Positions 20,969-37,532 of a stretch of DNA of 64,000 bases are shown here, one piece after another (position 1 is the stretch's first letter; the number at the start of each line of letters is the position of its first letter). Made by a program: the position numbers and the translations under genes. The stretch lies in NCBI GenBank assembly GCA_017303535.1, contig JAFLCO010000001.1, forward strand, positions 7,446 through 71,445. Reading direction: 5' to 3'. The notes beneath the pieces are model-generated. The model ran no database searches, was not told the origin of the DNA, and worked only from the letters and a program-made list of their open reading frames with translations. Origin of the DNA: Planctomycetota bacterium. Lineage in GTDB: Bacteria > Planctomycetota > Planctomycetia > Pirellulales > PNKZ01.

Positions 20969-21075
20969 GAGAGCGTCCTCAAAAGCGGTGGGACGAATAG
21001 CAGAAGGCGGGATCGAGCAAAGTGAATTCAGATTGTACTCTGGCCGAGCAAACGTCGGCAACCTGCCCCGGCACC

Positions 21076-21828: not shown

Positions 21829-21882
21829 CGCTGCCCAATCGGCCGCGGCATTGGTATCTTGAAGCACACCAAGCGGTCGGCT

Positions 21883-21909
21883 CCCGGAGGCAAGCTCCGG
21901 GGCTAAATG
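21883..21909. repeat. GCTAA-hairpin element (family A)
   Basis: cccggaggcaagctccggggctaaatg. Compare 42711-42736, gcggagacaagctccgcggctaaatg. Confidence 0.65.
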
Positions 21910-21918
21910 CTGCTGCAA

Positions 21919-21960
21919 GAACCCTGAACCCCGAACCCCGAACCCTGAACCCCGAACCGC
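21919..21960. repeat. Tandem heptamer array (GAACCCY)x6
   Basis: gaaccct gaacccc gaacccc gaaccct gaacccc gaaccgc, ending 2 nt before the ribE GTG start. Confidence 0.85.
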
Positions 21961-21962
21961 CC

Positions 21963-22571
21963 GTGTTCACCGGCCTCGTCGAACTGAAAGCCGCCGTCGT
22001 CGAAATCCACGATGAACCGCCGGGCAAGCGGTTGCGCATCGCCGCGCCTGCGATCGCCGCCGTAGTCGCGCTGGGCGACAGCATCTGCGTCAGCGGCTGT
22101 TGCCTCACGGTCGTCCGGTTCGACGACGGCGTCCTCGAATTCGAAGCCGGCCCCGAAACCCTGGCCCGCACGAGCTTAGGAAAACTGCAGCCGGGCGGCT
22201 TCGTTAATCTCGAACGTTCGCTCCGGTTAAGTGATCGGCTCGGCGGCCATTTGGTCACCGGCCACGTCGATTGCACCGGCACGCTCCTCGAACGTCGCGA
22301 CCTGGGGCAATCGACCGACAGCCCCTGGTCCGAAATGTGGTTTGGCTTTCCCAAGCCATACGCCGGGCACCTCGTCGAGAAAGGCTCGATCACCGTCTCA
22401 GGCGTCAGCCTCACGGTCGTCGCCGCCGAAGCCGAGCGGTTTAGCGTACAACTCATTCCGCATACCTTGGCCGTCACGACGCTCGGCGACCTCAAACCCG
22501 GCGACGTCGTGAACCTCGAAACCGATCTACTCGCCAAATACGTCGAACGCCAACTCGGGCTCCGCTCATGA
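21963..22571 (+). CDS. ribE: Riboflavin synthase alpha chain
   Basis: The GTG at 21963 gives (M)FTGLVELKAAVVEI, the canonical MFTGLV/I N-terminus. The duplicated lumazine-binding repeats are present (GDSICVSGCCLTVV, GSITVSGVSLTVV). 202 aa. Confidence 0.9.
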   Translation: MFTGLVELKAAVVEIHDEPPGKRLRIAAPAIAAVVALGDSICVSGCCLTVVRFDDGVLEFEAGPETLARTSLGKLQPGGFVNLERSLRLSDRLGGHLVTGHVDCTGTLLERRDLGQSTDSPWSEMWFGFPKPYAGHLVEKGSITVSGVSLTVVAAEAERFSVQLIPHTLAVTTLGDLKPGDVVNLETDLLAKYVERQLGLRS

Positions 22572-22966
22572 CCGAAGCCGCCGCCTCGCAAAACCCGCAA
22601 ACTTCCCCCAGCTTCGAGCAAGCGCTCCAGCGGCTCGAGCAGATCGTGCAACAGCTCGAAGACGGCCGCACCGACTTGGGGTCGTCGCTCGCCGGTTACG
22701 AAGAAGGGGTCAAACTCCTGCGGCAATGTCATGGCCTGCTCGAAAGGGCCGAACGGCGCATCGAATTGCTCAGCGGCGTCGATGCCGACGGGAAACCGAC
22801 GACGCAGCCCTTCGACGACGAAGCCACAATTTCCCTGGAAGAGAAAGCACAAACCCGGTCCAAGCGTCGTAGTACGAAGAAGTCGCCGCCGTCGGACGTC
22901 GCCGATGTGGGGAATTCCGCCTCGGCAGGGCCTGATAGCGTGGACGAGTCGAACACCCTTTTTTAG
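22568..22966 (+). CDS. xseB: Exodeoxyribonuclease VII small subunit with extended C-terminal tail
   Basis: SFEQALQRLEQIVQQLEDGRTDLGSSLAGYEEGVKLLRQCHGLLERAERRIELL matches the XseB core. The start overlaps the ribE stop (ATGA). The xseB-ispA-dxs synteny is classical. Confidence 0.85.
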   Translation: MTEAAASQNPQTSPSFEQALQRLEQIVQQLEDGRTDLGSSLAGYEEGVKLLRQCHGLLERAERRIELLSGVDADGKPTTQPFDDEATISLEEKAQTRSKRRSTKKSPPSDVADVGNSASAGPDSVDESNTLF

Positions 22967-23095
22967 AATGAAATCGGCCCTTCTTGCGGGGAAGGCCGTC
23001 CGTAGGATCGTTGCCTGGCGAGTCGTCGCCCCCGATCCGACTGCCGTGGTTGCCCAACGCGCCACGTTGCCCGAAGCCGCGATTGTGCGTTGTTG

Positions 23096-24088
23096 ATGGC
23101 CACTCTTTCCACCGCCGCCGCTCGTAGCCCGTCGCCTGCGCCGTTCCCGGCGCTCGACGCGTTCACCGGCCTCTGGCGGGCCCGAGTCGAAGCAGCCCTG
23201 GCCGATTGTCTTCCTCGTCCCAACGCGACGACGCCCGGCTGCCCGCAGCTTCTGGCCGACGCGATGCGCTACAGTTTGCTCGCCCCCGGCAAGCGGCTCC
23301 GTCCGATCTTGGTTCTCGCCGGCTGTCAGGCTTGCGGCGGCGATCTCGAAGCGGCGCTCCCCGCGGCCTGCGCGGTCGAGATGATCCACTGCTATTCGCT
23401 CATCCACGACGATCTGCCGGCGATGGACGACGACGATCTCCGTCGCGGCAACCCGACGAACCACAAAGTCTTCGGCGAAGGGTTGGCCATTCTCGCCGGC
23501 GATGCCCTGCTCACGCTCGCCTTTGAAACTCTGGCAACCCGGGTCCATCCCGCGACCGCGGCCGCCGAGTGCTGCGCCGAGTTGGCACGTGCCGCCGGTG
23601 CCTGCGAGATGGTCGGCGGGCAGGCCGACGACCTCGCCGAAGAAGGCAAACTTCCCGGCGCCCCGCGCAATACCTCGCGCACGCCTGCCGAAGGGCTCGC
23701 CACGCTCGAAGCCATTCATCGCCGTAAGACCGGCGCGATGATTCTCGTCTCGCTCCGGCTCGGCGCGATCGTCGCCGGAGCGCAGCCTGCCCAACGCGCG
23801 GCCCTCGACGAATACGGCCGGCGCCTCGGGCTGACCTTTCAAATCATGGACGACCTGCTCGACGTGCGCGGCTCCGAAGCCGCGGTCGGGAAGCGAGTCG
23901 GCAAAGATGCGGCCCGCGGCAAACTCACGTTCCCCGGGCTCTTGGGTGAAGCGGAAAGTTTGCGACGCGCCGAAACGCTGACGGCCGGAGCCCTGGCGGC
24001 GCTCGGCGAGTTGAAACAACATGGAATAGGTACCGACGTCGAAGTCTTGGAAGACCTCGCGCGTTACGTCGTGGAAAGGAACCACTAA
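23096..24088 (+). CDS. ispA: Polyprenyl (farnesyl/geranylgeranyl) diphosphate synthase
   Basis: First Asp-rich motif IHDDLPAMDDDDLRRG and second motif FQIMDDLLD. It lies between xseB and dxs. Confidence 0.88.
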   Translation: MATLSTAAARSPSPAPFPALDAFTGLWRARVEAALADCLPRPNATTPGCPQLLADAMRYSLLAPGKRLRPILVLAGCQACGGDLEAALPAACAVEMIHCYSLIHDDLPAMDDDDLRRGNPTNHKVFGEGLAILAGDALLTLAFETLATRVHPATAAAECCAELARAAGACEMVGGQADDLAEEGKLPGAPRNTSRTPAEGLATLEAIHRRKTGAMILVSLRLGAIVAGAQPAQRAALDEYGRRLGLTFQIMDDLLDVRGSEAAVGKRVGKDAARGKLTFPGLLGEAESLRRAETLTAGALAALGELKQHGIGTDVEVLEDLARYVVERNH

Positions 24089-26029
24089 ATGCCGGCTCCC
24101 CTGCTCCCCACCATCGACTCGCCGGACGATCTGCGCCCCTTGTCGCTCTTGCAGCTCGAGCAAGTGGCGGCGGAGATGCGCGAGGCTCTCTGCCACGTCG
24201 TTTCCAATCGCACGGCCCACTTCGCGTCGAACCTCGGCGTGGTCGAGCTTTGCTTGGCCCTGCACACGACGTTCGACTTCCGTCGCGATCGGCTCATTTG
24301 GGACACCGGCCACCAAATCTATCCGCACAAGCTCATCACGGGCCGCTTCCGCGACTTCGCCTCGATTCGCACCAAGGGCGGCTTGATGGGTTACCCGAAC
24401 CCCGCCGAAAGCGAATACGACTTGTTCGTCACCGGTCACGCCGGCTCGAGCGTTTCCACGGTGCTCGGCCTGAAGAGCGGCGACGACCTGCTGCCCGGCC
24501 AGGAAGATCGGCAGGCCGTGGCCGTCATTGGCGACGGCGCGTTCCCCTCCGGCATCGTCTTTGAAGCCCTCAACAACGCGGCGTTTCTCAAGAAGAAAAT
24601 GATCGTGGTGCTGAACGACAACAAAATGTCGATCTGCCCGCGCGTCGGCGGCCTGGCCGATTACTTCGATCGCCTGCGGATGAACTCGCTCTACGTCGGC
24701 CTGAAGACCGGCGCCGCGAAGGCCCTCACCAAAGTGCCGCTGATCGGCGACGGCATGGAGCGGATGTTCAAGAACACCCGCGACGCCTTTAAGGCCGGCC
24801 TGCACGGCGGGATGCTGTTCGAAGAACTCGGCATCCGCTACGTCGGCCCGATCGACGGCCACAACCTCGGCCTGCTCAAGCAATATCTGGAGATGTGCCA
24901 AGAGGCCGAAGGTCCGGTGCTGCTGCACATCGTCACGCAAAAGGGACATGGCTTCGGTCCGGCCGAAGAAGATCCGGTCAGCTTCCACACTCCCGCCCCG
25001 TTCCAACGCGACGGCCGCTGCGTGGTGCCGGTCAAGAAGTCGTCGAGCAAGGCCTACACGAACATCGCCAGCGCCGCGATTCACGAGCAACTCGCCGCCA
25101 ATCCGAAGGTCACCGTGCTCACGGCCGCGATGTGCCAAGGGACGAACCTCGAAAAGGTCCGCGACGATTTCCCGACCCGCTTCTTCGACGTCGGCATTTG
25201 CGAATCGCACGCCGTGGCGTTCGCGGCCGGCCAAGCGAAGGCGGGCCTGCGACCGATCGTCGATATCTACAGCACGTTCCTGCAGCGCAGCTTCGATCAG
25301 ATCTTCCAAGAAGTCTCGCTGCAGAACTTGCCGGTGACGTTCTTGCTCGACCGCGGCGGCCTCACCGGTCCCGACGGTCCGACGCATCACGGCGTGTTCG
25401 ACATCGGCTACATGCGGATGTTCCCGCACATGGTCGTGATGGCCCCCGGCGACGCCGCCGACTTGCCCGCGATGCTTGACTTCGCATTGAAGCACGACGC
25501 GCCGACCTCGCTCCGCTACCCGAAGGCTCCGGCCGAAACGATCGATCGCTCGCCCGCGCCGATCGAACTCGGGCGGGCCGAAGTGCTCGAATGGGGCGGC
25601 GACGGCATGATCGTCGCCTGCGGTACGCTGCTGACCGACTGCGTGAAGGCGGCGGCCCAACTTCGCGAAGAAGGGCTCGACGTCGGCGTGATCAATGCCC
25701 GCTTCATCAAGCCGCTCGACACGGAGACGATCCTCAAGGCCGTGTCGACGGCGCCGTTCGTGCTGACCGTGGAAGAAGGGCAACTGATGACCGGCTTCGG
25801 CTCGGCCGTGCTGGAAGCGGCCAACGAAGCTCGCTTGCCGACCGCCAACATCCACCGTCTCGGCATCCCGGACGCCTACGTGGAACACGGCGAGCGAGGC
25901 GAACTCCTGGCCGACCTCGGTCTCGACGCCACGGGCATCGCCGCCAAGTGCCGCGAACTGGCCGCCGCCGCATTGCATCACGACGAAGACCTCGGCCCGG
26001 CCAAACCGGCCGTCCGCCGCCGCGGCTAA
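24089..26029 (+). CDS. dxs: 1-deoxy-D-xylulose-5-phosphate synthase
   Basis: 646 aa. Motifs HFASNLGVVELCLALH, DTGHQIYPHKLITGR, GHAGSSVSTVLG, GDGAFPSGIVFEALNNA and DVGICESHAV. The start directly follows the ispA stop (taaATG). Confidence 0.97.
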   Translation: MPAPLLPTIDSPDDLRPLSLLQLEQVAAEMREALCHVVSNRTAHFASNLGVVELCLALHTTFDFRRDRLIWDTGHQIYPHKLITGRFRDFASIRTKGGLMGYPNPAESEYDLFVTGHAGSSVSTVLGLKSGDDLLPGQEDRQAVAVIGDGAFPSGIVFEALNNAAFLKKKMIVVLNDNKMSICPRVGGLADYFDRLRMNSLYVGLKTGAAKALTKVPLIGDGMERMFKNTRDAFKAGLHGGMLFEELGIRYVGPIDGHNLGLLKQYLEMCQEAEGPVLLHIVTQKGHGFGPAEEDPVSFHTPAPFQRDGRCVVPVKKSSSKAYTNIASAAIHEQLAANPKVTVLTAAMCQGTNLEKVRDDFPTRFFDVGICESHAVAFAAGQAKAGLRPIVDIYSTFLQRSFDQIFQEVSLQNLPVTFLLDRGGLTGPDGPTHHGVFDIGYMRMFPHMVVMAPGDAADLPAMLDFALKHDAPTSLRYPKAPAETIDRSPAPIELGRAEVLEWGGDGMIVACGTLLTDCVKAAAQLREEGLDVGVINARFIKPLDTETILKAVSTAPFVLTVEEGQLMTGFGSAVLEAANEARLPTANIHRLGIPDAYVEHGERGELLADLGLDATGIAAKCRELAAAALHHDEDLGPAKPAVRRRG

Positions 26030-26043
26030 AAGTCTCTCAGAAT

Positions 26044-26100
26044 TCTCCCCTCGCCACGTGCTTTCAAGAGACACGGGGGAGAGGGGCCGGGGGTGAGGGG
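26044..26100. repeat. Family D G-rich hairpin repeat (…GGGGAGAGGGG-C-GGGGGTGAGGGG)
   Basis: tctcccctcgcc...gggggagaggggccgggggtgagggg. Close relative at 36001-36043. Confidence 0.7.
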
Positions 26101-26240
26101 TTTCTAATTCTCGAGCGGCCTCAATTGAGCCCGCCGCAGTAACCGTTCGCCGAGCAGAAATCGCCTTCTGTAAGGAACGCCCTCCGCGGCGTTCCGCCGG
26201 CACTAATCGCAACAGATTTGCAATTGCGCCAAAATTGCAA

Positions 26241-26342
26241 GTGCGTACATCGGAGCCCGAGATGTACGCACCCTTAGTTCTAAGTGATCCGGTGCGTACT
26301 TTTCGGACCTCGATGTACGCACCCTGCCCGATTTGTACGCAC
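26241..26342. repeat. Phased inverted-repeat array built on TGTACGCAC
   Basis: IR1 is GTGCGTACATC-N9-GATGTACGCAC (26241-26271). IR2 is GGTGCGTAC-N12-GATGTACGCACC (26291-26323). A half-site tgtacgcac sits at 26334-26342. The 13-mer GATGTACGCACCC recurs exactly 51 bp apart. Confidence 0.8.
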
Positions 26343-26413
26343 TTACGGTAGCGCGTTTGTAATTGCAAAACGATCGTCAATAAGACGACCTGCCGAACAG
26401 AAATCGCATATTT

Positions 26414-26460
26414 CCCTTCTCCCCTCGCGGGAGAAGGTGCCCGAAGGGCGGATGAGGGGG
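26414..26460. repeat. Family D repeat (hairpin + GTGCCCGAAGGGCGGRTGAGGG subtype)
   Basis: cccttctcccctcgcgggagaaggtgcccgaagggcggatgaggggg. The tail is shared with 26566-26610. Confidence 0.7.
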
Positions 26461-26483
26461 CAGATCGTCGTATCGACGCCGCA

Positions 26484-26516
26484 AGACTCCGGTCGCTGAC
26501 GCTCCCGGCTCGCTGT
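26484..26516. repeat. Family C repeat
   Basis: agactccggtcgctgacgctcccggctcgctgt, with 1 mismatch to 14519-14551. Confidence 0.8.
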
Positions 26517-26565
26517 CCGGGCTTGTACCACCAACCCCTCTCCCACCGGGAGACTGCGTTGTTTG

Positions 26566-26610
26566 TCGCCTCCTGCCGGAGGCGAGTGCCCGAAGGGCGG
26601 GTGAGGGTGG
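26566..26610. repeat. Family D repeat (hairpin + GTGCCCGAAGGGCGGGTGAGGG)
   Basis: tcgcctcctgccggaggcgagtgcccgaagggcgggtgagggtgg. Confidence 0.7.
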
Positions 26611-26652
26611 CGGTGCGTAAAGGTTGGTTATGGTGATTCATGGTCATGGACC

Positions 26653-26829
26653 TTAGCCCCCGGCACTTCATGCCGGGGGCAATGTGGGTTTGATTCGGTT
26701 TAACGGCTTAAGCACGATCGGGAGTTCGCCATGTCCCCTCGCTTGCGCTTCGGGGCTAGTATGCGGATCCCACGCCGCTCGCGAGATTCCACGCCGATTG
26801 CCCCCGGTTTGAAGAACCGGGGGCTAAGG
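26653..26829. repeat. Inverted pair of family A hairpins bracketing ~115 bp
   Basis: ttagcccccggcacttcatgccgggggcaa (26653-26682) and ttgcccccggtttgaagaaccgggggctaagg (26798-26829) are in opposite orientation. The pair at 4292/4386 has the same arrangement. Confidence 0.7.
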
Positions 26830-26900
26830 TCGACGCCCAAGCGCGCAGCGGCGCATCACGTAGTTTCCCAAATCCGGACCACCGATTCCAATCACTTTTT

Positions 26901-27077
26901 GGCCGGCAATGTAACAGGCACACTCCGCGTGCCGTTGGCCGCGGACCCAAAAACGCCCGCACGAATCAAAGTACGACGGTGAACAGACGACGCGATCCGA
27001 GTAACTCACGGCGGCGAAGCAAATCCACGAGCGACGGCACACGGAGCGTGCCTGTGACATTGGCAAAGCGGCCGGCC
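26901..27077. repeat. Inverted pair of family E elements (GGCACRCTCCGYGTGCC hairpins)
   Basis: ggccggcaatgtaacaggcacactccgcgtgccg (26901-26934) versus cggcacacggagcgtgcctgtgacattggcaaagcggccggcc (27035-27077). These form a ~27-bp inverted repeat with ~3 mismatches. ccaaaaacgccc and cttgacgc words recur nearby. Confidence 0.65.
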
Positions 27078-27425
27078 AAAAACGCCCCTTGACGCCGCAA
27101 AAAATCCCCCGCCGGCCAAAACTTTTCTTGACGCGACGAACAATTCTTTTCACGCAGCAGCGAAGTTACGGCAACCTTTATCTTTCTCGCCGTCCTGTGA
27201 ACGCTCGAAAGCCTGCGAAGACCACCCATTCCACGCCGTAGACTACGGTCAATATGCCCCGCCTTATCCAGGAGTAAAGCCAGAGAACGGCTTCTAAAGC
27301 GAGTTCAAAAAGAAGTTCCGTCATTTGTTGCAACAAAATATGGGTTGGCAATAACTGGTGCAACAGAAAGCGCGGACTGTAGAATTTGAAGACTCGCACG
27401 CGCGAGCGGACGCTTGAACCGCAAA

Positions 27426-28841
27426 ATGAACAAAAGTCAGCGCACTTGTATGCCCATTGATGTCAGTCAAATTACCGACGCACAACTTGAACAGGTTTTC
27501 ACCTACAAGGAGGGGCATTTCTTTGATCTCAAAGCCAAGGAGATTAAGCCAGCCAAGCTTACTAAGACTATCTCTGGCTTTGCGAACGCTGACGGTGGGG
27601 AATTGTACATTGGAATTGCAGAGGGGCAGGCCGGTGCTCCGCATGACTGGAATGGGTTCGCCGACCCCGAGGATGCCAATGGCCATTTGCAGTGTTTTGA
27701 GGAACTGTTTCCGCTAGGTGGAGACTATTCCTATTGCTTCCTAACGCATCCAAAAGAAACCGGTTATGTGCTTCAAGTGATCGTCTCTAAGACGAAGGCA
27801 CCGGTAAAGGCAAGTGACGGCATCTGCTACCTCCGCCGTGGTGCACAAAGTTTGCCTCAGAACACAGAGGCAAAGCTGCGTCTATTAGAGCGCAATAAGG
27901 GGGTTACTTCGTTTGAGAATGAACCGGTTTCTACCGACTTGGACACGATCTGCAATTCGGCGACTACGATTGGGTTTATGCTTGACGTCGTTCCCACTTC
28001 TGAGCCGGAAGTTTGGCTGAAGAAACAGGAACTAATCAAAGACAGCAAGCCAACGGTTGCTGGCGTCGTATTGTTTGCTGATCTGCCGCAGGCAGTGCTT
28101 CCAAAGCGATGCGGCAATAAGGTCTACCGGTACAGGACAGCAGACAAGGAGGGGACGCGCGACACTCTTGTTGGATTGCCTCAAAGCGTCGAAGGTTCGG
28201 CGTATGACATCATCAAGGGAGCGGTCAGGCTGACCCAAGAAACCATAAATGGAATTCAGATACTTGGTGACGACGGTCTGGAGCCGGTTGCGTACCCAAC
28301 GGAGACACTTCACGAAGTCATTACTAATGCCGTTTTGCACCGCGATTACGGAAATGCAGATGATGTGCATGTTCGCATTTTCGATAACCGCGTTGAGGTG
28401 GAAAGCCCTGGGCGACTGCCTGCCCACATAACGCCGAAAAACATTCTTAAGGAGCGATTTGCACGAAATGGAAATATTGTTCGAGTGATTAACAAATTCC
28501 CAGACCCACCCAACAAGGACGTCGGGGAAGGCCTAAATACTGCGTTTGAGGCGATGCGAACTCTGAATCTGAAGCCGCCGATCATCGTCGAAACCGACAA
28601 TTCAGTCGTGGTGCAAATCAAGCACGAAAAGCTTGCGTCAGCTGAAGATGTGGTAATGGAATACTTGGATCAAAACCCGCTCATCACTAATCGTGTGGCA
28701 CGCGGGTTGACAGGAATTCATTCAGAAAACTCAATGAAGAATGTCTTTAACCGATTGCGCGACCGAGAGCTAATTGAGCAAGTTCCGGGACGATCTGGCT
28801 TTGCGTCGGCATGGCAAAAGGCAAGAAAGAAGAAGAAATAA
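27426..28841 (+). CDS. AlbA_2 (Schlafen-like, former divergent AAA_4) + HATPase_c_4 + C-terminal wHTH protein, on a low-GC segment
   Basis: The ORF is 27414(TTG)..28841, and the ATG options are 27426 and 27450. N-terminal FFDLKAKEIKPAKLTKTISGFANADGGELYIGI is the AlbA_2 core. EVITNAVLHRDYGNADDVHVRIFDNRVEVESPGRLP is the RecG-C-terminal/HATPase_c_4 type. The tail is Lys-rich. GC is far below that of the flanks. Confidence 0.8.
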   Translation: MNKSQRTCMPIDVSQITDAQLEQVFTYKEGHFFDLKAKEIKPAKLTKTISGFANADGGELYIGIAEGQAGAPHDWNGFADPEDANGHLQCFEELFPLGGDYSYCFLTHPKETGYVLQVIVSKTKAPVKASDGICYLRRGAQSLPQNTEAKLRLLERNKGVTSFENEPVSTDLDTICNSATTIGFMLDVVPTSEPEVWLKKQELIKDSKPTVAGVVLFADLPQAVLPKRCGNKVYRYRTADKEGTRDTLVGLPQSVEGSAYDIIKGAVRLTQETINGIQILGDDGLEPVAYPTETLHEVITNAVLHRDYGNADDVHVRIFDNRVEVESPGRLPAHITPKNILKERFARNGNIVRVINKFPDPPNKDVGEGLNTAFEAMRTLNLKPPIIVETDNSVVVQIKHEKLASAEDVVMEYLDQNPLITNRVARGLTGIHSENSMKNVFNRLRDRELIEQVPGRSGFASAWQKARKKKK

Positions 28842-29189
28842 CCGTCGGAAGCGGACGAGTCGAATGCCGCCGGACCAACCGCTCCCTTTGCTGGCTTGTA
28901 AGTTGAGTTCGCCGCCAAGAAGCGGACCCCATTCCGTGGGCTAGTCTACTAGCCCCAACGAGCCTGACCACGCGGGCGCTCTCGCGTTCAGCAACGCGCT
29001 CTGCGGTATCCTTGCGAATTCCGGCCCCTTCCCGTACTTTTTAGGGTTCGTTCTTGGCGAACTTTCATCGTCTGGGCGACGTCTGTTGTCGTGTCCCCTT
29101 GCTGGCGCGGCGGGGCTAGTCTTTGAGTTCCGCGCGTCGCTCTCGATCCGTCACAATCTACAACCTCTTTCCGTCTCACGCACATCGCT

Positions 29190-30422
29190 ATGGCCGATCC
29201 TTATTTTCAGTCGCGTTTTGCCGATCGCATTGGGGGCCCTAACTACGGTAAGGGGACCGAGATCTATAAGTTTGAGAAGATCAAGCGGGCCAAGCGCAAG
29301 GCGCTGGCCGATCATCCCGAGCGGTCGCTTGTCGACTTCGGCATCGGCGAGAACGACGAGATGGCGCCGGAAGGGGTGCGGCGCGTGTTGACGGAAGAAG
29401 CCAACAAGCCGGAGAACCGGGGCTACGCCGACAACGGCATCGCGGCCTATAAGGAAGCCGCGGCTCGCTTCATGCAGCGGCAGTTCGGCGTAGCGCTCGA
29501 TCCCGTCAAGGAAATCAATCACTGCATCGGCACCAAGACGGCCCTGGCCATGCTGCCGGCGGCGTTCATCAACCCGGGCGACGTCACGCTGATGACCGTG
29601 CCGGGCTATCCGGTTGCCGGCACGCACACGAAGTACTACGGCGGCGAAGTCCACCGGCTGCCGCTCTTGGCGAAGAACAACTTCTTCCCGGACCTCGACA
29701 ACATTCCGGCCGACGTTCTGCGCCGCACGAAGCTGCTCGTGCTTTGCTACCCGAACAGCCCGACCGGTAAGACGGCCACCGTCGACTTCTACAAGCGGGC
29801 CATTGATTTCGCGCAGAAGAACAACGTGGTGATCGTGCAAGACGCGGCCCACGCGCTGCTCTCGTACGATCAAGAGCCGACGAGCTTCCTGCAGGTGCCG
29901 GGCGCGAAGGAAGTCGGCGTCGAGGTGCACTCGATGTCGAAGGGGTTCCACATGATCGGATGGCGGATGGGCTTCGTCGCCGGTCATCCGCTGATCGTGC
30001 AGGCCTTCGCCGACGTGAAAGACAACAGCGACTCGGGCCAGTTCATGGCCGTGCAAAAAGCGGCGGCCGCGGCGCTGGACGACGCGAGCATTCCGAAGAT
30101 CGTTCGTGACAAGTATCGTCGCCGCTTAAAGAAGCTGGTCGACGTGCTCAAGCGGTGCGGCTTCGAGTGTGAGATGCCGGGCGGAACGTACTTCCTCTAC
30201 ACGCCCGCGCCGAAGGGCTTAGCCGACGGAACGAAGTTTGAAACCGGCGAAGCGGCGAGCCAGTACCTGATCACGCAGCACTCGATCGTGACGGTGCCGT
30301 GGGACGACGCCGGCCCGCACTTGCGGTTCTCGGTGACGTACGAAGCGGCCGACGAAGCCGCGGAAGACTCGCTAATGCGCACCACGGAAGAACGGCTGAA
30401 GAAGATCCAGCCGGTGTTTTGA
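29190..30422 (+). CDS. dapL: LL-diaminopimelate aminotransferase
   Basis: 410 aa. A class I/II aminotransferase with the DapL-type N-terminus MADPYFQSRFADRIGGPNYGKGTEIYKFEKIKRAKR, NPGDVTLMTVPGYP and SMSKGFHMIGWRMG (PLP lysine). Confidence 0.88.
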   Translation: MADPYFQSRFADRIGGPNYGKGTEIYKFEKIKRAKRKALADHPERSLVDFGIGENDEMAPEGVRRVLTEEANKPENRGYADNGIAAYKEAAARFMQRQFGVALDPVKEINHCIGTKTALAMLPAAFINPGDVTLMTVPGYPVAGTHTKYYGGEVHRLPLLAKNNFFPDLDNIPADVLRRTKLLVLCYPNSPTGKTATVDFYKRAIDFAQKNNVVIVQDAAHALLSYDQEPTSFLQVPGAKEVGVEVHSMSKGFHMIGWRMGFVAGHPLIVQAFADVKDNSDSGQFMAVQKAAAAALDDASIPKIVRDKYRRRLKKLVDVLKRCGFECEMPGGTYFLYTPAPKGLADGTKFETGEAASQYLITQHSIVTVPWDDAGPHLRFSVTYEAADEAAEDSLMRTTEERLKKIQPVF

Positions 30423-30454
30423 GCAGGTGCCAGTAGGCAGGAGCCAGGAGTCAG
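30420..30454. repeat. Heptamer-periodic CAG tract (5 units) starting in the dapL stop codon
   Basis: TGAGCAG GTGCCAG TAGGCAG GAGCCAG GAGTCAG. This aligns unit-for-unit with the tract after the cpaB stop. Confidence 0.7.
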
Positions 30455-30610
30455 GTGGGACGGAACTAAGTTCCGCGTCGACTAAGCTGCCTTCGTCATT
30501 CGGGCTTCTGCATTCGTCAATTGCCTTCGCCGGCTCTGCGCCGAGAAGAGGTCACGGGGATGAACCTCTTCTCGGCGTCTCACCGGACGACGTCCGATTA
30601 GCCGCGGGGC

Positions 30611-30985
30611 TTAGTAGCCCTTAGGGCCGTGGTGGCCGCCGCCGTGGTCGCCTTCGACGACCGGGCCGCCGCCCGAGCAGATGCGGACGCACTTCGAGTT
30701 GCCCCAGTCGCCGTTCGACCAGGCGTTGTCGCAGAAGTCGGCCGCGTCGTTAAATGCGCCGCCGCCCGAGAGGGCATGGTGGCCGGTCACGCCGCTGTAG
30801 CTGTACGATTGATTCACGTTGGCCAGGGCCTGGGCGACGTCGGCAAGTTCGGTAACGACCGAATCACGCACGGCGGCCAAACCGACGATGACGCCGATTA
30901 CGAGGATCGAGGCGATCAACATTACTTCCGCCGACACGATGGCACCGGCTTCTTCCGTCCACAAACGTTCGAACAAGACCTTCAT
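30611..30985 (-). CDS. Divergent Flp-like prepilin, paralogue of 12209..12538
   Basis: ATG at 30985: MKVLFERLWTEEAGAIVSAEVMLIASILVIGVIVGLAAVRDSVVTELADVAQALANVNQSYSYSG... It shares the leader, helix and DFCDN...SKCV tail with the other copy. 124 aa. Confidence 0.55.
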   Translation of the reverse strand: MKVLFERLWTEEAGAIVSAEVMLIASILVIGVIVGLAAVRDSVVTELADVAQALANVNQSYSYSGVTGHHALSGGGAFNDAADFCDNAWSNGDWGNSKCVRICSGGGPVVEGDHGGGHHGPKGY

Positions 30986-31596
30986 AATGCAAACTCCGGG
31001 GAGAGAGAGGACGCGGGTGAGGCGTCTGGCTTGCGACCGGCGACAAGTGTGAGAGCGTTGCCGGCCCTGCGACCGCGGTTGGGTCGAGCACCTAAGTTGC
31101 AAAGTAGTTACGACCGGTGCGACTCAGGCGCGTGAATCAAGCGACGCCGGAGCGGTTTTGCTCGGGTTTTTTCGTGGCTGCGCCGCGAGATCGGCGCGAC
31201 CGTCAAAGTCGGAATTCCGAACTTGCCGAAGCTGTCGATTTCTCCGAATTCGCGGATCGCGCGGCGCGTGGAATTTGGGGAACATTGCGTGATGCCCGTA
31301 TGCTGCGGAGCGTTGCGATCGGCAAGTCCGTTCAATAGCCCCGGGTGGATACCCGGGGCACCGCAGGTATGCTCCTGCGGCTCGGTGGAGATCGTCATAA
31401 GTGGCGAATTTTCGCTGACTTACGTCGCGCAAAACCTGCGGGTTTTACCCCCTTTGTGTTTTGCATCAAGAACAAATAATCGATGTCGGACGCGCATCAG
31501 ATAGGTGCAGGTCCGAGGAATACCGAGCGGGGCAGCGATCGGCGTCGAGTTGCCGGTCGTCGCCGGCTGACGCGGACAGGCGATTTTTCGAGACAG

Positions 31597-32247
31597 ATGA
31601 AGATGAATAGCAGCAATAGCAACCCCTTCGCGGGCAAAGTTCGAGCGAGCGATGAGCTGCTCTGGACGGCGTATCAATACTCCGTAGGCGAGCTGGATGA
31701 TTCGGCCGCGGCGGCGTTTGAAGAGCGCATGGCGAGCGATCCGTCGGCTTGTGAAGCTTTGGCCGAGGCGGTGGCACTGGGCGAAGTGGTCCGCGTATCG
31801 TTTGAGCAGAGTTCTTTCGAACGGGGCTCTTTCGAACGGGCCGCACCGATCGAGCCGGCGAAACGCCCGCTGGTCGCCGCTTCCGCATCGCGATCGACGA
31901 TCGGCTGGTGGGCGATCGTGACGGCCGCGAGCGTCGCGCTCGTCGTCGCTTGGCAAACCTGGCGCAAGCCGGCCGACGCGCCGACCGGCGAAGTCGCCGC
32001 GGCGCAGCGTCTTGAAGGTTTGGCGGAAGCCGACTCGCAACTCTTGGCGGCGTTGGGCCCCGAGCACCGTTGGGACGCCGTGTCGCCGCTGGTGGATGAA
32101 CTCGTCGCCGCGGACGAAGTGCTTGACGAAGTCGCCGTCATCGAAAGCGGTGACGAGGACGAAGTCGCCGCCGACCCGATGGACCTTGCAGCACCGGATT
32201 GGCTGCTGGCCGCGGTGGCCGAGTCGTCGTCGGACGCCACGGAATAA
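31597..32247 (+). CDS. Hypothetical protein with anti-sigma-factor-like N-terminus and one TM segment
   Basis: ATG 31597. LLWTAYQYSVGELDDSAAAAFEERMASDPSACEALAEAVALGEVV resembles anti-sigma N-terminal helices. The TM segment is WWAIVTAASVALVVAW, and the C-terminus is acidic. No sigma-factor gene is adjacent. Confidence 0.45.
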   Translation: MKMNSSNSNPFAGKVRASDELLWTAYQYSVGELDDSAAAAFEERMASDPSACEALAEAVALGEVVRVSFEQSSFERGSFERAAPIEPAKRPLVAASASRSTIGWWAIVTAASVALVVAWQTWRKPADAPTGEVAAAQRLEGLAEADSQLLAALGPEHRWDAVSPLVDELVAADEVLDEVAVIESGDEDEVAADPMDLAAPDWLLAAVAESSSDATE

Positions 32248-32255
32248 CGCCGAGC

Positions 32256-33056
32256 ATGTCGCACCATCTCAAGAATTTGATTCTGCAGCACTCCGGCTTC
32301 CTTCGTTTCGCGACGGCGCTGGCTGTCGTGGTCGGTTGCATTTCGTTGACTCGCTTGACGGCCGACGAAGGGATCGTCCCCGTCAAAGCGACGACCTCCG
32401 GCACGGCCGCGGCTCTGAAGGCCGACGGCTCGAAGTCGAGCAAAGGTCCCAAAGGCCCGCAGGCTTCCAAAGCGTTGCAAGGTTTCACGCCGGAGCGCGA
32501 AGCGGCGGCGCTGACGTTTGTGCGGGCCCATCATCCGGAACTTGCCGAGCTTCTCGACCGGCTCAAGACGCGCCGCCCGCAAGAGTATCAAAAGGCGGTG
32601 CGCGAACTCTTCCGCGCCAGCGAGCGCTTGGCCCAAAGCCAGGAGATGCAGCCGCTGCGCTATGAAATGGAACTCAACGAGTGGAAACTGCAATCGCGCA
32701 TTCAGTTGCTCGTGGCCCGCATGTCGATGGGGCGGACGCCGGAACAGGAGGCCGAGTTGCGGCAGTTGCTGGCCGAGCAATTGGCCGTCCATCGAGAACT
32801 GGTGAAGTTCACGCACGAACGAACCGCCGCCCGGGCCGCCGCGTTGCAAAAAGAGCTGGATGAATTGGATGCCGACCGCGAGCAGTTGGTCGAACGCCGC
32901 TACCAGGAAGCTTTGAAAACCGCCGGCCGACCGAAGCCCGCCGGGAAAGCGACGCCTTCGAAGAACGGTGCCGCGAAACCTTCGCCCGGCAAATCCGGTG
33001 ACGGTAAATCCGGCGACGGCAAGCCGGCGGAAAAGAAACCAAGTGAAAGCCCGTAA
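32256..33056 (+). CDS. Secreted coiled-coil protein (hypothetical)
   Basis: ATG 32256, 9 nt after the upstream stop. Signal-like LRFATALAVVVGCISL, long heptad-like helices, and a Lys/Pro/Gly-rich tail. Confidence 0.5.
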   Translation: MSHHLKNLILQHSGFLRFATALAVVVGCISLTRLTADEGIVPVKATTSGTAAALKADGSKSSKGPKGPQASKALQGFTPEREAAALTFVRAHHPELAELLDRLKTRRPQEYQKAVRELFRASERLAQSQEMQPLRYEMELNEWKLQSRIQLLVARMSMGRTPEQEAELRQLLAEQLAVHRELVKFTHERTAARAAALQKELDELDADREQLVERRYQEALKTAGRPKPAGKATPSKNGAAKPSPGKSGDGKSGDGKPAEKKPSESP

Positions 33057-33242
33057 CCAAGCCTGAGAAGTCGTCAACTTGTTCTATTGAGCAGCGTCGC
33101 TGTTCAAACGCCTGGATTGCCGTCCGATCGTTCCCCCGTCCGTTTCGTTTGCCGCCCGCACACACAATCCACGCCTGCCTGATTTCGGCTTAATTGCTTT
33201 GCCATCGCAAGTGAATTGAGTCATTTACGGAGAGTCGTAAGT

Positions 33243-35990
33243 ATGCGTCGCACCCATTTCGCACTCGTCGCCGCTTGCTGTCTGGCGCCGTCACTCGCTT
33301 TTGGCGCCGCGATTGAAAAGTCGTCGGACGTGCCGGCCAAGGTTCTGCCGCCGGCCAGTATCCGTTTCGAATCGCCGGACGTGAAGGAAGTGCCGAGCTT
33401 GCAACGGCACGTGCTGCCGCTGATGGGCCGGCTCGGTTGCAGCGGTCGGGCCTGCCACGGCTCGTTCCAAGGGCAAGGGGGCTTCCGCCTCTCGCTCTTC
33501 GGCTACGACTTCAAGACCGATTTCGAAGCGATCGTTAAGAGTGAAACGCCGCGGGTCGACGTCAAGAAGCCGGCCGAGAGCATGATCCTCGCCAAGACGT
33601 CGAGTGACGTCGAAGACGAGCACGGCGGCGGCAAGCGGATGGAAAAGAACAGTTGGCAATACCGGCTGATCTCGAAGTGGATCGAAGCCGGTGCGCCGGC
33701 CGTTGATGAAGCGAAAGATCCGACCTTCGTGAAGATGGAAGTCCGGCCGACGGAAATCGAATACGTGAAGCCGGGCGAGACGACGCAATTGCATGTCGTC
33801 GCTCACTGGTCCGACGGCACGATCGAAGACGTCACGCCGCTGTGCCGTTTTCAAACGAACGACGACGCCGTCGCGAAAGTCGACGTCAATGGCGTGATCA
33901 CGTGCGTCGGCAAGGGCGACACGCACGTCGTCGCCTTCTACGACAACGGCGTGGTGCCCGTGGCCGTGATGCTGCCCGTCAGCGATCAGGTCGGTCCGAA
34001 ATATCCGAACATCCCGGCCAAGACGAAGGTCGACGAACTGGTGCTGACGAAGCTGAAGAAGATCGGCGTCGTGGCGTCGGACGTTTGCACGGACGAAGAA
34101 TTCTTGCGTCGGGCCAGCTTAGACGTGACGGGCGTCCTGCCGACGGCCGACGAAGTGCGGGCGTTCCTCGCCGATAAGTCGCCGAACAAACGAGCCGCGA
34201 AGGTCGACGAACTTCTCAGCCGCCCCGCCTACGCCGCTTGGTGGACCACGAAGCTCAGCGACATCTTGGGCAACAGCGAGAACCAACTTCGCAACAGCGC
34301 TCCGGCCAAAGCCGGCACGCACTGGTACGAATGGCTGCACCGCCGCGTGGCCGACAACGTCCACTACGACGATATTGTCGAAGGCATCGTCCTGGCCGTA
34401 AGCCGAACCTCGCCGGACCAAGACTACCTGGAATACTGCCAGGAAATGACGTCGTACGTTCGCGACGACAAGCCGGCCGACTTCACGGCCCGCGAGACGA
34501 TGCCGTATTACTGGATGCGTCGTAACATGCGGACGTCGAACGAGAAGGCGCTGTCGTTTAGCTACGCGTTCCTCGGCGTGCGGTTGCAATGCGCGGAATG
34601 CCATAAGCACCCGTTCGACCAGTGGAGCCAGTACGACTTCCAACACTTCACGGCGTTCTTTGATCGCATCACCAGCGGAACCGGCGATCGCGAAATCGCC
34701 AAAGAGCTGATCGCGAAGGCGGGCGTGGAGACCGATCCGAAGAAGGTCGGCGGCGCGAAGATTCGGGCCGACCTCGATCGCGTGGCTCGCTCCGGCGGCG
34801 TGGTGCCGTTCTCCGAGTTGTACGTTCGGGCTCCGAAGGCGGCGCCGAAGGGGAAAAAGGATAAAAGCAAAGTCGCGGCGGCCGGTCGCGTGCTGACGCC
34901 GAAGGTTCTGGGCGGCGACGAGATCGTCGACCAAAACTACGACGATCCCCGTGAGCCGCTGATGGACTGGCTACGTCAGAAGGACAACCCGTACTTCGCG
35001 CGGGCCTTCGTCAACCGCGTGTGGGCGCACTACTTCAACGTGGGCATCGTCGAGCCCGCCGACGACATGAACCTTGCCAACGCCCCGAGCAATCGCGAAT
35101 TGCTCGACTACTTGGCGGCTCAGTTCGTCGAGCACGACTACGACATCAAGTGGCTGATGCGCGAGATCGTCAATTCGGATACGTACCAACGTTCGTGGCT
35201 GACCAACAGCACGAACGAGTTTGATCTGCGTAACTTTAGCCATGCGGTGCCGCGGCGCCTGCCGGCGGAAGTGGTGTACGACGCCGTCGTGAGCGCGACG
35301 GCCGGCCAAAGCGAACTGGCCCGTCGTGCGCAAGACCCGGTGACGAACTGCGCAATCGGCATGAGCCTGAGCTATACGAACCGGAACAACATCAATAACT
35401 ACGCCCTGACCGTGTTCGGCAAGCCGAAGCGGGAGACGCCGTGCGATTGCGAGCGGTCGAACGAACCGTCGCTGTTGCAAACTGTCTACCTCCGCAACGA
35501 CCAGGAAATGTTCCGCATGATCGAGCGTCCCAACGGTTGGCTCGACGCCGTGACCGCCGACCTGCCGGGCACGCAAAAGAAGTCATCGGACCCTGCCGCC
35601 GAACTCCGCAACAAGGAGCGCGAGTTGGCCCGCATGAAGGAACGCCTCAAGGAAGAAACCGCGAAGGCGAAGAAGAACAAAGGCAAGGTTACTGCCAACG
35701 AAGCTCAGCGGTTGCTCGCGATGAAGGATCGGGCCAAGGAAAAGATGGCGGAACTCGAAGCGGAGATCGCGGCTCTGCAAAGCGCCGGTGACCAAGGGAA
35801 GCAGGCCAAGCCGCAGTCGACGGCCGAACTGATCAACGAAGCCTACTTGCGGACGTTCACTCGTTATCCGACGAAGGACGAACTGGCGACGGCCGAGGAA
35901 TATATGAAGACGGCGGAGAACCCGGCCACCGGCATCCGCGATCTCGTCTGGGCTCTGCTCAACACGAAAGAGTTCGTGGTCAACCACTAG
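33243..35990 (+). CDS. DUF1549/DUF1553 (PSCyt2 / PSD1) domain protein
   Basis: ATG 33243 with RBS ggagag. Signal peptide, CSGRACHGSFQGQGGFRLSLFGYD (DUF1549-type), a central Big-like region, CAECHKHPFDQW (DUF1553-type), a C-terminal coiled coil and a ...LLNTKEFVVNH end. Confidence 0.85.
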   Translation: MRRTHFALVAACCLAPSLAFGAAIEKSSDVPAKVLPPASIRFESPDVKEVPSLQRHVLPLMGRLGCSGRACHGSFQGQGGFRLSLFGYDFKTDFEAIVKSETPRVDVKKPAESMILAKTSSDVEDEHGGGKRMEKNSWQYRLISKWIEAGAPAVDEAKDPTFVKMEVRPTEIEYVKPGETTQLHVVAHWSDGTIEDVTPLCRFQTNDDAVAKVDVNGVITCVGKGDTHVVAFYDNGVVPVAVMLPVSDQVGPKYPNIPAKTKVDELVLTKLKKIGVVASDVCTDEEFLRRASLDVTGVLPTADEVRAFLADKSPNKRAAKVDELLSRPAYAAWWTTKLSDILGNSENQLRNSAPAKAGTHWYEWLHRRVADNVHYDDIVEGIVLAVSRTSPDQDYLEYCQEMTSYVRDDKPADFTARETMPYYWMRRNMRTSNEKALSFSYAFLGVRLQCAECHKHPFDQWSQYDFQHFTAFFDRITSGTGDREIAKELIAKAGVETDPKKVGGAKIRADLDRVARSGGVVPFSELYVRAPKAAPKGKKDKSKVAAAGRVLTPKVLGGDEIVDQNYDDPREPLMDWLRQKDNPYFARAFVNRVWAHYFNVGIVEPADDMNLANAPSNRELLDYLAAQFVEHDYDIKWLMREIVNSDTYQRSWLTNSTNEFDLRNFSHAVPRRLPAEVVYDAVVSATAGQSELARRAQDPVTNCAIGMSLSYTNRNNINNYALTVFGKPKRETPCDCERSNEPSLLQTVYLRNDQEMFRMIERPNGWLDAVTADLPGTQKKSSDPAAELRNKERELARMKERLKEETAKAKKNKGKVTANEAQRLLAMKDRAKEKMAELEAEIAALQSAGDQGKQAKPQSTAELINEAYLRTFTRYPTKDELATAEEYMKTAENPATGIRDLVWALLNTKEFVVNH

Positions 35991-36000
35991 CCTATGAAAA

Positions 36001-36043
36001 CTCCCCTCGCCCCCTTGGGGGAGAGGGGCAGGGGGTGAGGGGG
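36001..36043. repeat. Family D G-rich hairpin repeat
   Basis: ctcccctcgcccccttgggggagaggggcagggggtgaggggg, just after the DUF1553 stop. Confidence 0.7.
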
Positions 36044-36129
36044 CCGATCATCTATCGCCTTCCCTAGCAAGAACCTATTCAAACTCATTCAACGCACGCA
36101 CACTCGCTCGTCAATAAGGAATCCGAACC

Positions 36130-37422: not shown

Positions 37423-37473
37423 GCGAGCGGGGAGCCCGAAGACGCCGCGGCGCCGAACAGAAATTTCACGCCG

Positions 37474-37505
37474 ACAGCGAGCCGGTAGCATCAGCGACCG
37501 GAGTC
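37474..37505. repeat. Family C repeat (reverse orientation)
   Basis: acagcgagccggtagcatcagcgaccggagtc, whose reverse complement is gactccggtcgctgatgctaccggctcgctgt (3 mismatches to consensus). Confidence 0.75.
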
Positions 37506-37532
37506 ATTAGCGTCTGAACGACGACGGAAACA

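Follow-up and report, generated by a model that had tools for sequence, protein, structure and literature searches.

The gap between dxs and the LL-diaminopimelate aminotransferase gene dapL in a 64,000-nucleotide (nt) stretch of DNA from a Planctomycetota bacterium (GenBank assembly GCA_017303535.1, contig JAFLCO010000001.1, positions 7,446 to 71,445; hereafter the window) is a slot in which cargo is swapped. The window and the sister locus L002 carry a cassette with a Schlafen gene, and the sister loci L183-L185 carry a gene pair resembling the candidate defence system PDC-M63. We conclude that the Schlafen gene probably belongs to a known kind of mobile genes directed against phages. The PF04326 and PF13749 domain pair that it encodes has been named the "Schlatpase" supradomain (Kuzmenko et al., bioRxiv 10.64898/2026.05.29.728809), and the protein is a stand-alone Schlatpase with a C-terminal helix-turn-helix (HTH), which is the commonest prokaryotic Schlafen architecture and already catalogued. 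Horizontal acquisition is well supported: an earlier interpretation of this DNA from its letters alone (the sequence-only reading) had proposed a horizontally acquired candidate, and the foreign composition of the gene, its absence from 80 related loci, and the cargo swap in L183 all agree with that proposal. The coordinates of the features are collected in Table 1.

A graded set of sister strains was found by a dapL search, and all compared genomes are metagenome assemblies. In GCA_016794185.1, a 2,964-bp contig matches window positions 23548-26511 without a difference. L183, L184, and L185, from ENA and Logan assemblies, match the window at 99% of amino acids (aa) in dapL and share its hisF-ribE-xseB-ispA-dxs ... 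dapL-PSCyt2-DUF1501 synteny, with ispA adjoining dxs on the left flank and PSCyt2/PSD1 and DUF1501 genes in the neighborhood. These neighbors, together with the relatives of dxs, point to Pirellulales-like Planctomycetota as the source of the window. L183 aligns to window positions 20864-27094 and 29009-37571, and between them 1,623 bp of unrelated low-GC DNA replaces the Schlafen cassette at 27095-29008. The junctions are precise and read ...CCAAAAACGCC(C/G)CTTGACG before the cargo and TCCTTGCG(A/G)A...CCCGTACTTTTTAGGGTTCGTTC after it; a second copy of the GCCGGCCAAAA..CTTGACGC motif of the left junction lies inside the cassette (27111-27134). The alternative cargo (L185:273-1735, equivalent to L183:6210-7832) consists of a DUF6932 open reading frame (ORF) overlapping a 313-aa ORF by 4 nt. 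The former, up to 173 aa long from a TTG start, resembles a minimal nucleotidyltransferase (DGSF...DVDV) and matches Pfam DUF6932 (3.9e-14) and PADLOC PDC-M63A (8.5e-11), while the 313-aa ORF has no Pfam match and a weak PADLOC match to PDC-M63B (1.9e-4). This arrangement was recovered in several independent contigs. The more distant L187 (~90% nt identity) has the same right junction and a homologue of the 48-aa ORF of the cassette, with no Schlafen gene between that ORF and dapL, on a contig that ends 276 bp beyond the ORF homologue. In L186 (dapL 95% aa, 79% nt), glycosyltransferases precede dapL on its upstream side and the slot is missing. The same core flanks and identical junctions with different cargo in close relatives fit a defence hotspot, the defence type of the cargo resting here on candidate-level annotation.

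The cassette and its flanks have different histories. Compared with L183, the left flank of the window is 94.7% identical and the right flank (6.7 kb) 98.35% identical; this inequality also marks the slot as a recombination breakpoint that joins segments of different descent. Compared with L002, both the left flank and the right flank (6.7 kb) are 93.2% identical, and the 1,996-bp block that includes the cassette shows only seven differences (27076, 27107, 27219, 27467, 27569, 27596, and 28117) where ~130 would be expected at the divergence of the flanks. In L002, 88 of the 1,941 sites of dxs (4.53%) and 51 of the 1,233 sites of dapL (4.14%) deviate from the window, against 0.29% in the Schlafen gene, where three of the four differing sites are synonymous and the fourth gives N223I. 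Non-coding DNA to the left and right of the gene belongs to the near-identical block, whose ends lie no more than 24 bp and 58 bp from the L183-defined junctions. A recent passage of the cassette from one lineage to another through recombination at or close to the junctions, along with a change of cargo in one lineage, is the simplest reading. Since the alleles stem from different samples and assemblers, and the L183 allele turned up repeatedly, an assembly artefact is unlikely. All three synonymous sites (27467, 27569, and 27596) are third codon positions with T in the window and C in L002, which may reflect incipient amelioration of the L002 copy towards the GC of its host, on a count too small for a test.

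The foreign character of the cassette is also visible in its composition. In 400-nt windows, GC is 0.49-0.53 across ~27200-28900 versus 0.58-0.69 on either side. The lowest-GC 1.8-kb window of the 64 kb starts at 27101 (GC 0.503), and 1.8-kb windows outside the island average 0.625 (standard deviation 0.016, minimum 0.568). The tetranucleotide correlation to the whole window falls to 0.54 at 27001-29000, with a median of 0.95, and 27095-29008 is the sole strong segment of low GC and atypical tetranucleotide usage in the 64 kb. One ORF fills this trough. The shift is carried by GC at third codon positions (GC3), which is 0.530 in the Schlafen gene, 0.855 in dxs, and 0.842 in dapL, and not by amino-acid composition. 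The single-gene low-GC island of the sequence-only reading is thus borne out by sliding GC and tetranucleotide analysis, as are the housekeeping neighbors dxs and dapL by Pfam domains and source names; its limits, given as 27180-28990, were slightly narrow in light of the sister strains (27095-29008), and the repeat hotspot said to precede it exists as a repeat-rich spacer after dxs that lies outside the cassette. That reading had seen no integrase, transposase, or tRNA, and our searches agree: ARAGORN found no tRNA and Rfam no family in the window, no integrase or transposase was called within ~10 kb in the gene calls of the sister contig, and tblastn with two integrases and a Y1 transposase as queries gave no match. 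An island mediated by an integrase, a tRNA, or an insertion sequence was accordingly rejected, there being no tRNA, no Rfam match, and no recombinase nearby. An integron-like cassette was rejected as well, with no attC core (GTTRRRY) and a 3' tail that has one hairpin and otherwise folds like its shuffles (z = -0.03).

The distribution of the gene is patchy. No homologue of the gene and no dapL was found within 8 kb of dxs in any of 80 Planctomycetota genomes (dxs identity 65-83%), 45 of them with the full 8 kb on both sides and 75 with ispA-dxs kept. Since dxs and dapL remain neighbors only within the immediate clade, these 80 loci show that the gene is absent and do not represent an empty site. 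Vertical conservation across the order, which had been named beforehand as the observation that would speak against a foreign origin, was not seen, with none of the 80 dxs loci carrying the gene and other cargo standing in L183; the presence/absence comparison proposed earlier likewise found the gene missing from the 80 loci and replaced in the closest sister, L183. The gene has more than 5,700 homologues, the best 120 being 67-100% identical, and the closest named relatives among these 120 (68-84% aa) are Acidobacteriota. No donor lineage was sampled, because DNA similarity to other loci is confined to the coding sequence and reaches at most 72%. Among 53 distinct loci, whose flanks range in GC from 0.41 to 0.76, 48 have a gene that is lower in GC than its flanks (median difference -0.071; sign test p = 7e-10).

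The ORF in the trough (27414-28841, forward strand) has 475 aa, with alternative upstream starts at ATG 27426 and TTG 27414. The start at ATG 27450, which gives 463 aa, is backed by the homologue consensus MPIxVxEITD and by the JGI and NCBI gene calls. Pfam identifies, in one chain and in this order, SLFN_AlbA_2 (PF04326; 2.5e-9, 38.1 bits against a gathering cut-off of 25.3, residues 33-147 of the 475-aa ORF) and HATPase_c_4 (PF13749; 3.8e-13, above the gathering score, residues 305-389 in 463-aa numbering, which is used hereafter). NCBIfam gave no match for the protein. The C-terminal winged helix-turn-helix (wHTH) is detected by no sequence model, Pfam included, and it was recognized in an AlphaFold2 model of the monomer (46 homologues as input, mean pLDDT 83.5) as a helix-helix-helix-strand-strand arrangement (helices 398-408, 414-421, and 426-438; strands 442-444 and 454-457). 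Foldseek against the PDB matched the full length to the uncharacterized protein DIP2311 (3lmm, E = 1e-20), the N-terminal part to SLFN12 (3.3e-4), SLFN5, SLFN13, SLFN11, SLFN14, and the SAMD9 tRNase, the central part to PDK2/4, BCKDK, and histidine-kinase catalytic domains (GHKL/Bergerat fold), and the C-terminal part to the winged helices of BpsR (MarR family) and PapI with probability 1.00. As the whole three-domain model served as the query, TM-scores for single domains are low. The AlbA_2/HATPase_c_4/wHTH order read from the letters alone was therefore correct.

Both putative catalytic centers are strongly conserved in 81 distinct homologues (51-100% identity) from the fetched loci. In the nuclease domain, E21, D/E26, K28, and N46 are present in 81/81, the last belonging to the Schlafen box S42-G-F-A-N46 (SGFAN, SAFAN-type). 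In the ATPase domain, the most conserved of the protein, E289 and G321 are present in 81/81 and N293 in 80/81. Compared with the nearest non-sister homologue, the nonsynonymous divergence dN is 0.115 and the synonymous divergence dS is saturated. The invariant or near-invariant motifs, together with a low dN at saturated dS, indicate that the gene is intact and that both centers are under purifying selection. The protein shows the hallmarks of prokaryotic Schlafens (pSlfn), namely PF04326, the catalytic motif and box, and the fold of the mammalian nuclease C-lobe, and those of the Schlatpases, namely PF04326 with PF13749, the Bergerat Glu/Asn pair, and, as in the majority subclass, a short C-terminal HTH tail. 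The PADLOC matches are only partial and concern the pAgo (SLFN-pAgo) model (positions 56-438 of 1121, against residues 48-406 in 475-aa numbering); these model positions correspond to the Schlatpase module, residues 1-442, of SLFN-pAgo, and this is the sole match because the supradomain is common to both proteins. A SLFN-pAgo, i.e., a long-B Argonaute fusion, was rejected, as the protein ends at residue 463 without a PAZ/MID/PIWI core. The JGI product name, RecG helicase, was also rejected: only PF04326 and PF13749 were found, with no helicase family in Pfam and no match in NCBIfam, and the name stems from the Pfam title of PF13749.

We found no conserved companion of the gene. An all-against-all comparison of 400 neighboring ORFs from 54 homologue loci placed the commonest family in four loci, and 1413 small ORFs yielded no antitoxin-like one, their clusters being antisense artefacts; a conserved partner or antitoxin-like ORF was thus rejected, no family occurring in more than four loci. 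The gene stands alone in that no partner gene is conserved, which upholds the earlier stand-alone proposal over the 54 loci. Matches to defence models are much commoner near the homologues than in a control. A PADLOC scan of 150 neighboring ORFs at 36 homologue loci matched 160 models, among them a type IIG restriction-modification (R-M) enzyme (E = 0), a type I S subunit (5e-79), Cas1 (7e-46), and TIR effectors (1e-44), against 14 models, none better than 3e-27, in a control of 141 ORFs beside dxs at 35 Planctomycetota loci; these are counts of models, several of which match one protein. This PADLOC check, which had been proposed together with the defence idea, came out in its favor. The element that holds the homologue P0003 (81% identical) also encodes two integrases, a relaxase, a DUF87 ATPase, a BglII R-M system, and DndB, and P0055 adjoins a Gp49-type toxin pair.

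Mobile elements also carry relatives. Nine IMG/VR contigs encode homologues (51-57% identical) beside CI-like and CII-like regulators, Ant, O/P-type replication genes, DnaB, NinB, and RecE, a gene set of the temperate-phage lysogeny and early region. More remote homologues were found on 99 plasmids, of which 57 are conjugative, and in 19 deposited phage records, chiefly of Gordonia and Mycobacterium phages. An exhaustive phmmer search of 1.84 billion cluster representatives returned 5,380 clusters with E <= 1e-3, of which 170 had E <= 1e-30. The very closest include P0243-P0246 (853-1,141 aa), which are 49-54% identical over residues 1-460 and continue into ResIII, Helicase_C, and EcoEI_R_C, i.e., an HsdR translocase without the HSDR_N nuclease. 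In L189 (4431-14945 of a 3.1-Mb contig), one such fusion has a canonical hsdR on one side and hsdM, a PIN pair, and hsdS on the other, in a type I R-M operon, where it would be a second R-like subunit with a Schlafen RNase module as its nuclease. The fusions support a role in conflict systems and hint at DNA as the cue, because the Schlatpase-wHTH part of this sister clade replaces the DNA nuclease in a type I system.

Previous studies provide the frame for the function. A catalogue of 5,930 prokaryotic Schlafens with a conserved Ex4(E/D)xK motif reported "HisKinase" (34.0%) and "HisKinase-HTH" (19.2%) fusions as the commonest architectures and a defence gene within 10 kb for 69.6% (Perez Taboada et al., Nat Microbiol 2026, PMC13056530). 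The Schlatpase was found in 58.6% of 103,533 prokaryotic Schlafen proteins, most of them small and with nothing else or a C-terminal HTH; in RzAgo of the same study, the paired Schlafen domains rebuild the mammalian horseshoe and cut tRNA, and the D32A mutant is dead (bioRxiv 10.64898/2026.05.29.728809). Bacterial Schlafens defend by tRNA cleavage (PMC13056530, PMC13462974, PMC13552941): the Ig-like fusion is a phage-triggered tRNase (PMC13056530), and further examples of defence are Cash (PMC13462974) and an Enterococcus Schlafen (PMC13552941). Bacterial Schlafens have thus since been established as defence nucleases and the architecture has been catalogued, so that the defence idea of the sequence-only reading is no longer novel.

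On this basis we regard it as fairly likely that the cassette is a horizontally acquired single-gene Schlatpase-HTH unit, residing in a recombination-prone dxs-dapL slot of a soil Pirellulales-like planctomycete, whose product would be an ATP-dependent tRNase conferring abortive-infection-type immunity. The tRNA substrate, the ATP-driven oligomerization, the trigger, and the anti-phage phenotype are what we infer from analogues, namely the Schlatpase module in the SLFN-Argonaute from Runella zeae and further Schlafens of bacteria. The N-terminal Schlafen/AlbA_2 domain would be a metal-dependent endoribonuclease. Binding of ATP in the GHKL domain would drive the formation of a dimer or tetramer, in which the Schlafen domains would pair into a horseshoe nuclease as in mammalian SLFN11. 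A nucleic-acid cue, read via the winged helix and the middle region, would then license the nuclease, and the cutting of tRNA would halt translation and phage production.

Several observations weigh against this proposal. The trigger is a guess, as is the part played by the winged helix, and no operator motif is conserved across the family. The insertion route lacks a recombinase and a clear target duplication at the slot, PDC-M63 is itself a candidate system, to whose B protein the match is weak, and no known defence neighbor of this gene was found in the 64-kb window. The PADLOC enrichment test is rough, with crude ORF calls and a control of a different phylum mix, and several homologues, e.g., P0014, lie among ordinary genes. 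In the catalogue, ~30% of prokaryotic Schlafens have no defence neighbor; in its screen, the one that took in histidine-kinase-type fusions, two of seven systems protected E. coli, a DUF262 and an Ig-like fusion, with no histidine-kinase-type fusion among them (PMC13056530). Our literature search gave no paper testing a stand-alone Schlatpase-HTH.

Comparisons with characterized systems show where the window protein belongs. It has the domain order, size class, nuclease and ATPase motifs, and horizontal spread of the Schlatpase-HTH or "HisKinase-HTH" class, in which a defence-island context is frequent, and we found no structural difference from that class; the window copy adds its Planctomycetota host and a two-junction slot with allelic cargo, neither described in the papers on the class. 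RzAgo (SLFN-GHKL-pAgo) shares the Schlatpase module, the E-x4-D-x-K motif, a SAFAN-like box, and the GHKL pair (E314/N318 in RzAgo, E289/N293 in the window protein), and it supplies a working model of ATP-driven tetramerization and tRNA cleavage. In contrast, the window protein has no PAZ/MID/PIWI core, hence no guide-RNA sensor and no filament control, and a 65-residue winged helix stands where the Argonaute core of RzAgo begins. RorSlfn5, EcoSlfn7 (Ig-like and DUF262 fusions), and Cash (Schlafen-Csx15) share the Schlafen effector and single-gene logic with the window gene and are proven anti-phage tRNases, but their sensors differ, the Ig-like domain reading a tail assembly chaperone and Csx15 reading cA4, and none has a GHKL ATPase. 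In the case of human SLFN11, SLFN13, and SLFN14, the nuclease lobe is homologous and the catalytic motif is shared, and their antiviral cleavage of tRNA or rRNA is controlled by oligomerization and nucleic-acid binding; these human proteins have two lobes per chain and a C-terminal SF1 helicase, whereas the window protein combines a single lobe with a GHKL ATPase. DIP2311 of Corynebacterium diphtheriae (PDB 3lmm; 583 residues, function unknown) is the sole solved full-length structural relative, with ~510 aligned columns at 18% identity and a phmmer E of 1.4e-7 over the GHKL region. The likeness to the Schlatpase-HsdR fusions includes the winged-helix region, and they differ by their continuation into the HsdR motor.

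A stronger version of the proposal, which we put forward tentatively and consider doubtful, takes the Schlatpase-wHTH as a complete one-protein immune system in which its own winged helix, and no partner protein, reads a DNA or RNA cue and the cassette spreads by a gene-specific sweep in Pirellulales populations via the recombinase-free slot, ...CTTGACG / cargo / TCCTTGCG.... The cue would gate the ATP-driven assembly of the tRNase, and the HsdR-fused relatives suggest foreign or unmodified DNA as that cue. If this were true, the exchange mechanism of the fixed-junction slot would be new for a hotspot in Planctomycetota.

Less probable is a toxin of growth arrest or stress, i.e., a module like TrlG acting under a physiological cue, or a selfish addiction-type gene kept by its mobility. 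TrlG of the temperature restriction locus of Photorhabdus laumondii has the same AlbA_2 and HATPase_c_4 architecture, the same mis-annotation as RecG, and a patchy spread; it arrests growth when active, and loss-of-function mutants gain growth at 36 C (bioRxiv 10.1101/2020.06.02.129163). Distant homologues on Pseudomonas plasmids, ~24% identical to the window protein, adjoin TrlF-family ATPases, and some homologues adjoin toxin-antitoxin genes. However, TrlG belongs to a three-gene operon with TrlF and TrlR and acts within this conserved trlR-trlF-trlG arrangement, and no such partners occur in the window, in L002, or at the 54 homologue loci. The alternative cargo, the relatives in phage immunity regions, and the R-M fusions point instead to conflict with mobile DNA, and a toxin phenotype and abortive-infection defence are in any case not mutually exclusive.

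We judge it improbable, and more so than a toxin, that the protein is an ordinary DNA- or RNA-binding regulator that is mobile by chance, with a Schlafen fold that only binds nucleic acid. Traditional annotations read "putative transcriptional regulator" or "putative DNA binding domain-containing protein", the NCBI name is DNA-binding protein, the C-terminal wHTH is of the MarR/PapI type, the upstream region of the gene contains a perfect palindrome, and some mammalian Schlafens lack catalytic residues (PMC13462974). Against this, one would not expect a pure binder to keep E-x4-(D/E)-x-K and E-x3-N invariant or nearly so, as they are in the 81 homologues, there is no conserved target operon beside the gene, and regulators are seldom swapped allelically with candidate defence systems. 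Finally, the metagenomic origin of every compared genome and the AT shift of the family in nearly every host, which could reflect a family-wide constraint, might be taken to mean that no recent transfer occurred, the low GC being selected in the sequence and the identity to L002 being assembly or binning chimerism or extreme constraint, but this is very improbable given that the near-identity spans non-coding DNA and stops within tens of bases of the L183-defined junctions, that different samples and assemblers yielded the window, L002, and L183-L185, that independent contigs repeat the L183 arrangement, that GC3 rather than amino-acid composition carries the shift, and that 80 related loci lack the gene.

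The preferred interpretation, an acquired ATP-dependent tRNase with abortive-infection-type immunity, matters because Schlatpase proteins reportedly constitute more than half of the >100,000 prokaryotic Schlafen-domain proteins and their stand-alone form is without a demonstrated function. Here nature supplies genetic evidence of a role in immunity, in that the gene and another candidate defence system are alleles of one slot, that it has recently spread between lineages ~7% apart, and that close relatives sit in phage immunity regions or are built into type I restriction operons. With its native upstream and downstream regions, the 1.9-kb cassette with its one protein is a minimal construct for the ATP-switch/tRNase model of the class. 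A defence-type hotspot is also recorded here for Planctomycetota, where phage defence has received little study. New here are the boundaries of the cassette, the allelic PDC-M63-like cargo, the recent spread between lineages, and the phage-borne and R-M-fused relatives; nothing at the locus departs from the known logic of defence hotspots.

Table 1. Features of the dxs-dapL slot and its cassette (positions in the window; a dot marks features without strand).
Feature	Position	Strand	Basis or remark
dxs, left core flank	24089..26029	+	Pfam DXP_synthase_N / Transket_pyr / Transketolase_C
Repeat-rich spacer after dxs, outside the cassette	26030..27070	.	Repeat families D2, D3, D6, I1, I2
Block 99.65% identical to L002	27071..29066	.	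7 mismatches in 1996 bp
Left junction sequence CCAAAAACGCCCCTTGACG, common to the window and L183	27076..27094	.	Junction alignment
Variable cargo slot (cassette) in the dxs-dapL gap, 1914 bp, low GC	27095..29008	.	L183 alignment and composition
48-aa hydrophobic ORF (MTELLFELALEAVLWLYSWIRRGILTVVYGVEWVVFAGFRAFTGRRER), divergent from the Schlafen gene	27178..27324	-	JGI call in sister contig
Perfect 14-bp palindrome TTTGTTGCAACAAA, divergent promoter region	27325..27338	.	Homology to L187 stops exactly here
Schlatpase-wHTH gene, 463 aa (NCBI MBN8623871.1 = P0121)	27450..28841	+	ORF list, Pfam PF04326 + PF13749
Predicted Schlafen/AlbA_2 nuclease domain, residues 21-135	27510..27854	+	Pfam, motif conservation, Foldseek
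Predicted catalytic motif E21-x4-D26-x-K28 (E21-GHFF-D26-L-K28)	27510-27533	+	81-homologue alignment
Predicted GHKL (Bergerat-fold) ATPase domain, ~residues 250-390	28197..28619	+	Pfam, conservation, Foldseek
Predicted ATPase N-box E289-x3-N293	28314-28328	+	81-homologue alignment
Predicted C-terminal winged helix-turn-helix, residues 395-457	28632..28820	+	AlphaFold2 and Foldseek
Hairpin GGGCTAGT-CT-ACTAGCCC, downstream of the stop codon	28938..28955	.	Survives in centroid structure
Right junction TCCTTGCGAATT...CCCGTACTTTTTAGGGTTCGTTC, common to the window, L002, L183, and L187	29009..29066	.	Junction alignment, blastn ends
LL-diaminopimelate aminotransferase (dapL), right core flank	29190..30422	+	Pfam Aminotran_1_2, source names

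The cassette contains small elements besides the Schlafen gene. The 48-aa ORF has a homologue in L187 (276-422, reverse strand) of the same length and with the same ends, in a strain 10% diverged; the two share 32/48 aa and 79% of nucleotides, with 16 amino-acid changes for 31 nucleotide changes. It has no Pfam and no PADLOC match, and its coding status is uncertain. The palindrome TTTGTTGCAACAAA may be an autoregulatory operator and a candidate binding site of the wHTH. A family-wide upstream operator was rejected: the GGTGGATAAATTACAAC element is present only in the subclade of L005, L103, and L105 and is absent from the window copy. In this acidobacterial subclade, the form GGTGGATAAATTACAAC(G/C)G(C/T)TC stands ~50-70 nt before the start (L005:9930-9960, L103, and L105).

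The hairpin downstream of the stop codon is the sole stable element of the 3' tail. A sequence centered on GGGGCTAGT occurs only three times in the 64 kb, all around the cassette (26732-26775, 28938-28955, and 29092-29135): two direct 44-nt copies, 75% identical, lie outside the cassette and one palindromic copy lies in the 3' tail, none of them at the junctions. The direct repeat at 26732-26775 and 29092-29135 was rejected as a target-site duplication; it brackets the region but lies off the L183-defined junctions.

The spacer after dxs is conserved but prone to indels among the sisters, with an identity to L002 of 0.78-0.98 with gaps. Its hairpin-forming repeats lie at 26241-26322, at 26641-26683 and 26797-26839, and at 26908-26935 and 27036-27063, the last pair being absent from L002, and it holds two copies of GTGCCCGAAGGGCGGRTGAGGG. 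The G-rich element GGGAGAGGGGCCGGGGGTGAGGGG of the spacer appears to belong to a dispersed REP-like family, because it recurs between PSCyt2 and DUF1501 (36019-36042).

Two further features of the window emerged from the strain comparisons. Near the divergent start of a ThuA/cytochrome-like gene and hisF, positions 20801-21000 show one mismatch to L002 versus 10-23 in the neighboring 200-bp windows, with no Rfam match. Another strain-variable point lies at 37571, where homology to L183 stops: L183 has there an IS200-type Y1 transposase (L183:16747-17202), for which the window has no counterpart, and in L002 a second PSCyt2/PSD1 gene lies at about this point.

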